This document shows positions 37,801 to 40,154 of a stretch of DNA of 40,154 nucleotides, one piece after another. The stretch is taken from positions 1 to 40,154 of the IMG/VR virus record IMGVR_UViG_2531839523_000012; one strand, given 5' to 3'. The position numbers were made by a program. This DNA comes from a virus. Taxonomy: Duplodnaviria; Heunggongvirae; Uroviricota; Caudoviricetes. The number at the start of each line of letters is the position of its first letter. The first letter of the stretch is position 1.

Positions 37801-40154
37801 TTTTTTCAGTGTATACTTTTAGAAGTTTTTTTTTCGAGAATGACTTTTTAAAAATTCTGCTTGCAGTCATAGTCAATCCAAAGATATATTAATGGGAGTA
37901 TATAAAGGGCGGCAGTAGTAAATATTCGAAGTAATATCCATAAAATAACAATTATTTTTTCTTTTTGTGTGGGGATCCTCGTCGTAAGTCCAACTTGAGT
38001 TACCCTTGAAATTTTATCATCTATGTCACGGTGATTCTCAACCTCATTGAGCAAATTAAAATATTTTTCTTTCTGTTCAAGAGTTAACTGTTGACTGGTG
38101 GTAATGTCAAAATAGAGTCGCTGTAGTGCAATATAATTCCTTCTCATGGCTATTGCTCGACCACGAAAATCTAGGTTAGATACGATCAGAGAAATACCCA
38201 GTAGGGCCACCGAAAGTATTGCCGCAACGATATCTGTATTATCTCCTAGAACTTTTGGAAATCGCAACGTTACAATTGAAAGTACCGCACTCAATATAGC
38301 ATACCAAACGAGGATAAATTGAGAGTGCTTTTCAAGCCATTCTAGTCGATGGTGCGCTTGGATACGGGCTTTATATGTAAACCAAATATTGTCATGCATA
38401 AAAGATCCTTTTTAAAAGCGGAAGGGGCAGGATATATTGGAATCATTGAACATCCTGCCCGGCAGGATCAGTGAGCATAAGCTCAACAGTAAAATATTAC
38501 TGTTCATTATCAGAGCCGCCCTTGCATGCGCAAGAGGAAAAACCTGCCCCATCCTTTTGAATTATTACAATTTAATGATCTTAAAGTCAATACAAGCGAA
38601 TGGTGTCCAGAGATGATGAACTTAATGAACAAACCACTCGTCAGCAAACTCCCAAGTATCTTTCAGAGTCTCCTGAACAAAAGCCTTAGCAGAATCCTTA
38701 TCTGCGGTGTACGTAACAGGAAAATCATCGCTATGGTAGCTTTGACGCTCACCCCCATACCATAAAATATCAAGAGATTACGACTCATTTCCCCATGACT
38801 CTTCACCAACCAACAGTTCTATCAACATAAGATGTAAACTCATAAACTAAGCAAGATAAAAAAATTAACAGAATTTTGTTGATTTCATATCTGTGGAGTG
38901 TTAACTTAAAATGAGACCTGAAGTACTGAAGGTCTTTGACACACTGGAGAAGCAACTATGTTAACGCCGTTTGGTAAGACAGTAAGAAAAATGCGCATAG
39001 ACTTGGGGCTTACGCTTAAAAGCATGGCTGAGGCTATGGGCATGACCTCGTCTTATCTTTCAGCGATCGAAACTGGTAAAAGGGCGGTCACTAAGCCCGT
39101 GCTTGATAGCATCATTAGCTATTTTAATGCGGATGAAAAACAAAAAGAAAAGCTTATCAGTGCAGCTCGTGACTCTCAGCAGTCAGTAGAGATCAGCTTG
39201 TCAGGTAAGAATGGCCACGCTCGTGAAGTCGCAATTGCGTTCGCTCGTAGTTTTGATGAATTAAATGAAGAAGACTTCCGTAATTTACGACAGATTTTGA
39301 ATCGAAAACAGCAGTAGGAGGCGGCTTGAGCGGACAAGATTATCGTGTACCTCCGCAGAATCGTGAATCAATACGTTCTATCGTCACATCTCTGCGGAGC
39401 GCATTTGGTATTACTGGGCTTAAATTCCCTGTAATGGAGGTAATTGAGTTCGCATTGCCTCAGTTGATCCCGGATTTTGAGTTCCACATTGGTGGTATGA
39501 AAGAAATGGGAGAAACGCATGGTCTTACGTACCCACAGGAACATTTATTGATTCTGCGCGAAGACATTTACGAAGGCGCTTTGAATGGGGTAGGGCGAGA
39601 TAGGATGACTGCCGCGCATGAATTGGGTCATCTTCTTATGCACAGGAACATCGCATTTGCTCGTTCTGCCCCAGGGGTAAAAATCCGCCCTTTTGAGAGT
39701 AGTGAATGGCAAGCTAAATGTTTTAGTGGTGAGTTATTAGTGCCGGCTATGCATGCCAGTATTTTAAAAGGTATGACGGCTGAGGATGTTGCTAAGGCAT
39801 GCGGAGTTTCATTAGTGGCAGCGCGTTATCAGCTAGACAGAATGTAAAAACCCCTTGCTTGGCGCCAACCAGTGCAAGGGGCTTTAGGTGATGAATCCAA
39901 GAGGCATCACCACCGTGAACAGCTTCGATAGACAGCCTGAAATTAACACCTTCAGGGAAGATGTTCAAGGGAAAAATCTCTCTTGGTAAGGAGGTGTTTT
40001 ATGAATGGGTTTGAAATCAATTGCTTCAAAAGCGGCGCCCAAAGGGTTCCGTTGGGTTTTCTGCCGTTACCGCAAGGTGCGTGGGAAATCAAAAAAAGTC
40101 CTTGATGCTCATGATTACGGGTACGAGGCGTGGGCATTTTTAGTGCGCTGCTAA

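Follow-up and report, generated by a model that had tools for sequence, protein, structure and literature searches.

Can a repressor and protease gene pair that lies next to a defense operon, on the opposite strand, be taken as the switch of that operon? The question is raised by one end of the 40,154-nucleotide (nt) stretch of Caudoviricetes DNA in IMG/VR record IMGVR_UViG_2531839523_000012 (positions 1-40,154, referred to here as the window), which is a lambdoid Escherichia coli prophage integrated next to prfC. A gene for an XRE-family helix-turn-helix (HTH) repressor is followed there by a gene for an ImmA-type metallopeptidase (38958-39847), and beside them, on the other strand, lies an operon for a SLATT protein and a reverse transcriptase (RT), here assigned to the defense system DRT10. 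A preliminary description of this DNA had proposed that the pair holds the RT operon repressed and releases it upon DNA damage or infection. The explanation that we consider probable is a different one, in which the pair forms part of an autonomous cassette that is an autorepressed, protease-gated switch with a small third protein as its output, and which does not regulate DRT10.

The three-gene cassette

The two open reading frames (ORFs) of the pair stand at exactly the coordinates that the preliminary description gave for an HTH repressor followed by a HEXXH metallopeptidase, and its assignment of them to the ImmR/ImmA or DdrO/IrrE-type family agrees with the Pfam, PADLOC capH/capP and fold matches; the PGAP annotation of the pair is HTH and ImmA/IrrE metallo-endopeptidase. 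The first ORF (38958-39317, + strand) encodes a CapH/ImmR-like XRE repressor of 119 amino acids (aa) with an N-terminal HTH followed by a C-terminal domain of ~55 aa. Its residues 5-63 match HTH_31 (E 9e-11) and HTH_3 (E 2e-10), and the PADLOC capH profile matches over residues 2-116, nearly the full length (E 3.6e-10). The second ORF (39326-39847, + strand) encodes a short M78 zinc metallopeptidase of 173 aa that matches Peptidase_M78/IrrE-N (E 2.3e-9) and the PADLOC capP profile (E 7.7e-11, covering profile positions 56-147 of 242), and in which a helical (HTH-like) domain follows the peptidase domain at the C terminus and a GAF domain is absent. The zinc site is intact, as H98, E99 and H102 of the HEXXH motif together with E127 are invariant in 61 homologues. 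An AlphaFold2 model of the peptidase (predicted local distance difference test, pLDDT, 93) has as its top solved structure in Foldseek CapP 7T5T (E 2.2e-5; ~178 aligned columns of a 278-residue chain) and as its second IrrE 3DTI, and CapP is the only match in the PDB at the level of sequence. No cysteine is present in residues 103-126 (LLMHRNIAFARSAPGVKIRPFESS), that is, between the HEXXH motif and the third zinc ligand. The peptidase is therefore of the ImmA type rather than of the CapP/IrrE type, since both the GAF domain and the cysteine-switch residue are absent.

The peptidase gene starts with TTG, 4 nt past an AGGAGG that overlaps the stop codon of the XRE gene, the intergenic gap is 8 nt, and from this arrangement we take the two genes to be translationally coupled. 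A homologous XRE gene lies directly upstream in 78 of the 80 IMG/VR viral-contig loci that carry this ImmA family, which span 32-99% peptidase identity, and the pairing is thus far above chance. Substitutions in both genes are skewed to the third codon position, and hence both are under purifying selection. By itself, an XRE-M78 pair of this kind is ordinary.

What accompanies the pair is a third gene (40005-40154, + strand), which begins ~156 nt downstream of ImmA and whose stop codon ends on the final base of the window. It encodes a strongly basic protein of 49 aa (phrog_33859) with the motif PAPxGFRWVFCRYRKVRGxSxKVLDAHDYGYEAWAFLVR and a modeled structure that is rich in beta strands (pLDDT 90). 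No match in Pfam or NCBIfam and no structural neighbor was found for it, and phrog_33859 has no assigned function. Sequence identity is 77-98% across Enterobacterales and Aeromonas, and with respect to the Aeromonas copy the small protein is 77% identical while ImmA is 54% identical. Differences from the Aeromonas gene number 5, 3 and 36 at codon positions 1, 2 and 3, respectively, and it is because they concentrate at the third position that we regard 40005-40154 as a real gene. The protein family comprises ~58 clusters at 50% identity, and the gene follows ImmA in 37 of the 80 viral loci, among them nearly all of the closer relatives, with shorter divergent variants at three more; counted over 77 viral loci, it is found downstream of ImmA in at least 40. 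The same HTH-ImmA-small-gene triad is carried by an Acinetobacter plasmid. A 4-kilobase (kb) ColE1-type plasmid of Klebsiella quasipneumoniae (NZ_CP065845.1) has genes for an HTH protein (97 aa) and an M78 protein (254 aa) that are divergent from the small gene; the small-protein homologue in question is an unannotated one of 54 aa at 23-187, beside a 60-aa ORF, and the HTH and M78 pair, the 60-aa ORF and the 54-aa homologue are the cargo of this plasmid besides its replication functions. In another setting (L034/L035, 3748-5141) a homologue lies 159 nt downstream of the gene for a CAP12/Pycsar-type TIR-domain protein with no XRE-ImmA pair nearby.

The most strongly conserved part of the cassette is the spacer that links ImmA to the small gene (39848-40004, + strand), whose nucleotide identity to Aeromonas is 78% as compared to 63-71% for the three coding regions. 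Its predicted folds include a terminator-like hairpin at ~39851-39881, another hairpin (GGTGATG...CATCACC) that shows compensatory changes, a long-range helix, and a last hairpin in which ATCTCT pairs with the AGGAGG Shine-Dalgarno (SD) sequence of the small gene. The folding z score is -3.1, and five of the 26 pairs in the consensus structure show compensatory changes. Rfam, searched with 38300-40154 (E<=1), has no family that matches either this leader or the DRT10 non-coding RNA (ncRNA). The spacer may be a new cis-regulatory leader.

Upstream of XRE the best-conserved non-coding element is the palindrome ATTAACAGAATTTTGTTGAT (38864-38883, + strand), which is the probable XRE operator. Its consensus, ATCAACA-N6-TGTTGAT, is common to the cassettes of E. 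coli, Klebsiella, Yersinia and Aeromonas in an alignment of upstream regions. It is located at a fixed -93 to -99 from the XRE ATG, and close relatives have one copy of it per locus. The palindrome overlaps or adjoins the -35 element (TTGATT, 38879-38884) of a putative sigma-70 promoter (38879-38912, + strand) that was located by a consensus scan and by the upstream alignment, the -35 being either TTGATT or TTCATA and the -10 region being TAACTTAAAAT at 38902-38912. A second palindrome, AGACCTGAAGTACTGAAGGTCT (38914-38935, + strand), is unique in the window, falls in the predicted 5' untranslated region and is most likely a hairpin of the mRNA; at its position Klebsiella has another hairpin. 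It was rejected as the operator in that it is conserved among E. coli copies only, whereas TCAACA-N6-TGTTGA reaches Aeromonas. Direct SOS control of the cassette is not evident since its promoter region contains no LexA box.

No further consistent copies of the operator were found in the flanking elements of the cassette loci examined, nor was it found in the DRT10 promoter and ncRNA region of the window. An operator-like sequence with one mismatch to the consensus, TCAAGAGTTAACTGTTGA, lies at 38077-38094, within the coding sequence of SLATT; the expected number of such sites per window is 0.18. The same sequence is found in IHE3034, a genome with DRT10 and without the cassette, and the site therefore predates their juxtaposition. 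Consequently it was discounted as proof of a regulatory link, and it is probably coincidental.

On these comparisons of sequence, the cassette is an autonomous, horizontally mobile cargo unit of ~1.37 kb (about 38788-40154), consisting in order of a promoter with one palindromic operator, XRE, the short ImmA-type M78 peptidase, the structured spacer and the 49-aa protein. Its carriers in Gammaproteobacteria are temperate phages, genomic islands and plasmids, in which it is found at many different positions. These include the interval that separates attL from int in P22-like prophages (E. coli SZQ1 and ECONIH4, and Yersinia, in which tandem islands are nearby), the end of the tail module beside a satellite-like AlpA/DUF927 element in Klebsiella, the inside of the nin region of lambdoid prophages in Aeromonas, a chromosomal site (L037), and a position among HipA loci on the Acinetobacter plasmid. 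At 54 of 68 viral loci the gene nearest upstream of XRE points in the same direction as XRE, and these upstream genes group into 44 unrelated clusters, so that there is no conserved divergent partner operon; over the same 68 loci no conserved divergent partner gene was found upstream of XRE.

The prophage in the window encodes its own CI repressor (HTH and Peptidase_S24, 1893-2585), and CI-S24 and CII lie within 1893-3487. Hence the pair is not the lysogeny switch, a role for which it was considered and rejected. In the early regulatory region there are two perfect CTGT-N8-ACAG sites of LexA-box type (2359-2374 and 3587-3602), and LexA-box-like sites with at most one mismatch number 24 across the window as compared to 13 expected.

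Proposed mode of action and its alternatives

We propose that XRE, as a dimer, occupies the operator at the -35 element and that the operon would thereby be autorepressed. Upon a stress or infection signal the protease would cut the C-terminal domain of XRE, as in the homologous ImmA/ImmR, IrrE/DdrO and CapP/CapH pairs, and transcription would then rise and read through the leader and the small gene, whose ribosome-binding site would sit in a hairpin. The small basic protein would be the output of the system. Recombination within dinI near the prophage end would have placed the cassette, recently, beside DRT10, which has its own conserved promoter and ncRNA and which the cassette would not regulate.

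Several points weigh against this proposal. The binding, cleavage and induction steps are all argued from homology, and the peptidase is without the GAF domain, the single-stranded DNA (ssDNA) sensor of CapP and IrrE. Among the ImmA relatives that are more distant, roughly half have no recognizable small gene, and therefore the small protein is not a universal output. The hairpin that follows ImmA could act as a transcription terminator, and an unrecognized promoter could serve the small gene alone. At one locus (L034) a homologue of the small gene follows a TIR-domain gene and at another (L036) it has no XRE-ImmA neighbor, so the gene may pair with various upstream partners. Finally, the operator-like site inside the SLATT gene could in principle have a fortuitous (roadblock) effect on DRT10 in this strain.

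As to what such a switch might be for, it is possible, although we put this forward tentatively, that it is a three-component stress switch in which the GAF-less protease senses infection or damage, destroys the repressor and frees the small basic protein as a riboregulated effector that blocks a rival phage or kills the cell. The cassette, on phages and plasmids alike, would then be a stand-alone defense or exclusion module, which in this prophage happens to share a defense hotspot with DRT10.

Less likely is that the cassette is an addiction or abortive module of the toxin-antitoxin (TA) kind (Xre/COG2856/toxin), in which the toxin would be the 49-aa protein or the protease and XRE would be both antitoxin and repressor, and which would stabilize the phage or plasmid or kill infected cells. 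Exactly such three-component systems were predicted by Makarova et al. (2009), and the cassette is compact, mobile and patchily spread on prophage ends and plasmids, including a position among HipA TA loci. The small protein is, moreover, highly basic, and a leader that sequesters the SD apparently keeps its translation under tight control, which is often the case for toxic peptides. However, the small protein is unlike any known toxin in sequence or fold, many members of the family are without the small gene, and overexpressed pneumococcal COG2856 proteins were published as not toxic.

We regard as improbable the notion that the pair acts in trans, whereby the protease would cut XRE-type repressors of other resident elements or XRE would provide immunity to related invaders. 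The MpaR protease of Listeria is reportedly able to cleave the repressors of other resident elements. Such a role would also suit host prophages that already own a CI-S24 switch, and a cassette that is often found beside other integrated elements, as with AlpA/DUF927 in Klebsiella and the tandem islands of Yersinia. Yet no second operator was found in any flanking element, the neighbors are unrelated across loci, and the conserved small gene and its leader would be left without a role.

The neighboring DRT10 operon

The RT operon beside the cassette is DRT10 in all three of its components, which are an RT of the UG17 type, SLATT_5 and a structured ncRNA with its own promoter. The RT gene (36500-37876, - strand) matches PADLOC RT_UG17 (E 3.6e-158) and Pfam, and the SLATT_5 gene (37848-38399, - strand) matches PADLOC RTasSLATT (E 7.9e-57) and Pfam; together with the ncRNA and its promoter (38420-38590, - strand) they lie outside the cassette. 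The ncRNA core (38420-38554, ~135 nt) is directly upstream of SLATT and folds into a basal stem with four stem-loops (z = -4.7), and over 11 homologous loci its consensus structure has 35 pairs, 14 of them with compensatory changes. This layout agrees with the published DRT10 ncRNAs, and what had been called the leader of the RT operon is in fact this ncRNA, for which Rfam 15 has no family. The promoter, TTGACT-18-TG-AATAAT with an extended -10 (38590..38561), is conserved along with the ncRNA, and both the promoter and the covarying ncRNA are conserved whatever the neighbors. Between the tail-fiber genes and the RT there is also a conserved hydrophobic protein of 95 aa that belongs to no known family (36105-36392, + strand), and the tail-fiber genes include one for a lambda Stf-like side tail fiber (32895-35102, + strand) with long degenerate repeats rich in Ala, Ser and Thr, including those of KTSETNAK type.

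DRT10 has been published, in two recent preprints, as an autonomous tripartite defense system of ncRNA, SLATT and RT that is functional from its native flanks. In these accounts tandem-repeat cDNA is made constitutively and the system is triggered after transcription, with SbcB and a phage trigger resembling single-stranded DNA-binding protein (SSB) in control, and they mention no HTH, XRE, ImmA or peptidase partner. As given by Mestre et al. (2022), SLATT is the sole partner of UG17.

Is the cassette nevertheless tied to DRT10? The preliminary description had proposed that the matter be checked by co-occurrence, and the outcome went against its regulatory claim. Among 5426 complete E. coli genomes the DRT10 block (36500-38600, at least 90% identity) is present in 188 and the XRE-ImmA cassette (38754-40154) in 13. 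The two are adjacent in a single one, strain 510016, so that 187 of the 188 genomes have DRT10 but not the pair, and 12 of the 13 have the pair but not DRT10. RT and SLATT stand beside this ImmA family in one of the 80 viral contigs, which is the same E. coli prophage (99% identity). The pair is found in none of 14 DRT10 loci of other species (58-83% RT identity), all 14 of which have SLATT.

One of the DRT10 relatives, in Pseudomonas violetae (L024, 2700-5077), has, upstream of SLATT and on the same strand, genes for a 400-aa fused HTH-Peptidase_M78 protein (RmrA-like) and then for a 318-aa protein that belongs to no known family, and this is probably a separate system. It was not accepted as an instance of the pair, the fusion and the strand being those of another architecture. 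In strain 510016 (L001, 7449-8777) the SLATT gene is split by IS1A, which is consistent with DRT10 being costly, while SLATT is intact in the window.

The history of the juxtaposition can be read from the boundary between the two units. The 3' remnant of a dinI-like gene (38622-38753, - strand), annotated by PGAP as a pseudogene in 510016, belongs to neither unit and marks a recombination junction. Homology to prophages of the IHE3034 type stops at 38753, inside dinI, and homology to the cassette-bearing, DRT10-free IPCEC31 type starts at 38622, the dinI stop codon. The 132-base-pair (bp) overlap of the two homologies is thus the dinI remnant itself, and this points to recombination between prophage ends as the origin of the juxtaposition. 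The common order, as in IHE3034, is DRT10, an intact dinI-like gene and prfC, and in it the intact and presumably SOS-regulated dinI has the same orientation as the DRT10 ncRNA and lies immediately upstream of it. Strain 510016 has a further dinI-like gene, intact but only 84% identical, beyond the end of the window and just before prfC.

It had been argued that the pair is placed divergently next to the RT operon. The SLATT-RT operon and the pair are indeed divergent, but their start codons are 558 bp apart and the DRT10 ncRNA, its promoter and the dinI fragment lie between. From the XRE start to the ncRNA promoter there are 368 bp, including the dinI pseudogene fragment, and so XRE and DRT10 have no promoter in common.

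These results bear on the idea that XRE represses the divergent DRT10 and that ImmA, by cutting XRE on DNA damage or infection, frees a toxic effector in the manner of CapH/CapP and CBASS. The idea has its attractions, in that the topology fits the CapH/CapP rule (upstream of a defense operon and on the opposite strand), the top PADLOC matches are capH and capP, DRT10 is toxic when unbalanced, via its interaction with SbcB, and the window contains the rare one-mismatch site in SLATT. Against it, the four genes come together in only 1/188 and 1/13 E. coli genomes, 1/80 viral contigs and 0/14 loci of other species, and in the sole database genome that has both units SLATT is interrupted by IS1. 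The operator is at the promoter of the pair and absent from that of DRT10, the site within SLATT was there before the cassette arrived, the dinI junction separates the units, and DRT10 works alone from native flanks with constitutive cDNA synthesis. We conclude that it is very unlikely that the pair is the switch of DRT10; the same co-occurrence, junction and operator evidence favors what the preliminary description had offered as its alternative, a separate accessory cassette.

It is least credible of all that the pair is a decaying and now functionless remnant of the immunity region of another element, as the adjacent dinI pseudogene and the mosaic prophage end might suggest, in view of three intact ORFs under purifying selection across genera, invariant catalytic residues, and a conserved operator and leader.

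Comparison with known systems

Among the closest parallels is ImmR/ImmA (Bacillus subtilis ICEBs1 and phi105-type), in which an XRE repressor likewise adjoins, and is co-transcribed with, a short (~170 aa) GAF-less COG2856/M78 protease of HEXXH type. Autoregulation as in ImmR/ImmA is suggested by the operator at the cassette's own promoter. Unlike ImmR/ImmA, however, the pair described here does not serve as the master switch of the element that carries it, and no int or xis promoter has the operator. The cassette also differs from ICEBs1 in having the repressor gene first and the protease gene second, in its structured leader and 49-aa protein, both of which ICEBs1 lacks, and in its Gammaproteobacteria hosts.

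CapH/CapP (Lau et al., 2022; Calloji et al., 2026) provides the best profile matches and, in 7T5T, the best solved structure. The HTH partner, going by the capH match over residues 2-116, agrees with CapH in its C-terminal dimerization domain, and in this window the pair resembles CapH/CapP as well in being upstream of a defense operon on the opposite strand. CapP has 288 aa and three domains (peptidase, HTH and GAF). Like IrrE, it senses ssDNA in a groove between the peptidase and the C-terminal GAF domain, whereas the 173-aa protein described here ends after its HTH-like helices and has no GAF domain. It also has no cysteine at the switch-loop position, a feature that is optional within CapP. 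Furthermore, and again unlike CapH/CapP, there is no promoter in common with the defense operon and the association is not conserved (1/188, 1/80 and 0/14). With DdrO/IrrE (PprI) of Deinococcus the pair shares the protease fold and a logic in which the protease inactivates an XRE repressor, but IrrE has a GAF domain and a chromosomal radiation regulon with multiple operators, in contrast to the mobile cassette with its single operator.

As predicted by Makarova, Wolf and Koonin (2009), prophages contain three-component TA systems of Xre, COG2856 and toxin. The cassette is similar in being a mobile operon, of a kind abundant in prophages, in which a COG2856 protease gene accompanies that of an Xre repressor and a third gene occupies the place of the toxin, and it is distinct in that the third gene is that of the 49-aa basic phrog_33859 behind a structured leader and not RelE or PIN. 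No transcriptional regulator has been described for DRT10, and the XRE-ImmA cassette is not part of it. In the literature on ImmA/M78 anti-phage modules of prophages we found only the CapP paper, and a recurrent, portable module made up of a GAF-less ImmA, a CapH-like repressor, a conserved leader and a 49-aa protein is apparently undescribed.

A CapH/CapP-like pair that is divergent from a toxic defense operon is therefore insufficient evidence of regulation, because defense hotspots at prophage ends juxtapose unrelated cassettes via recombination. Hence the DRT10 system in this prophage is to be read as the published autonomous one. If the small protein is the regulated output of the cassette, it would provide a handle on how short, GAF-less ImmA proteases are activated in Gram-negative bacteria, and on the role of the 'orphan' XRE-M78 pairs in prophages.

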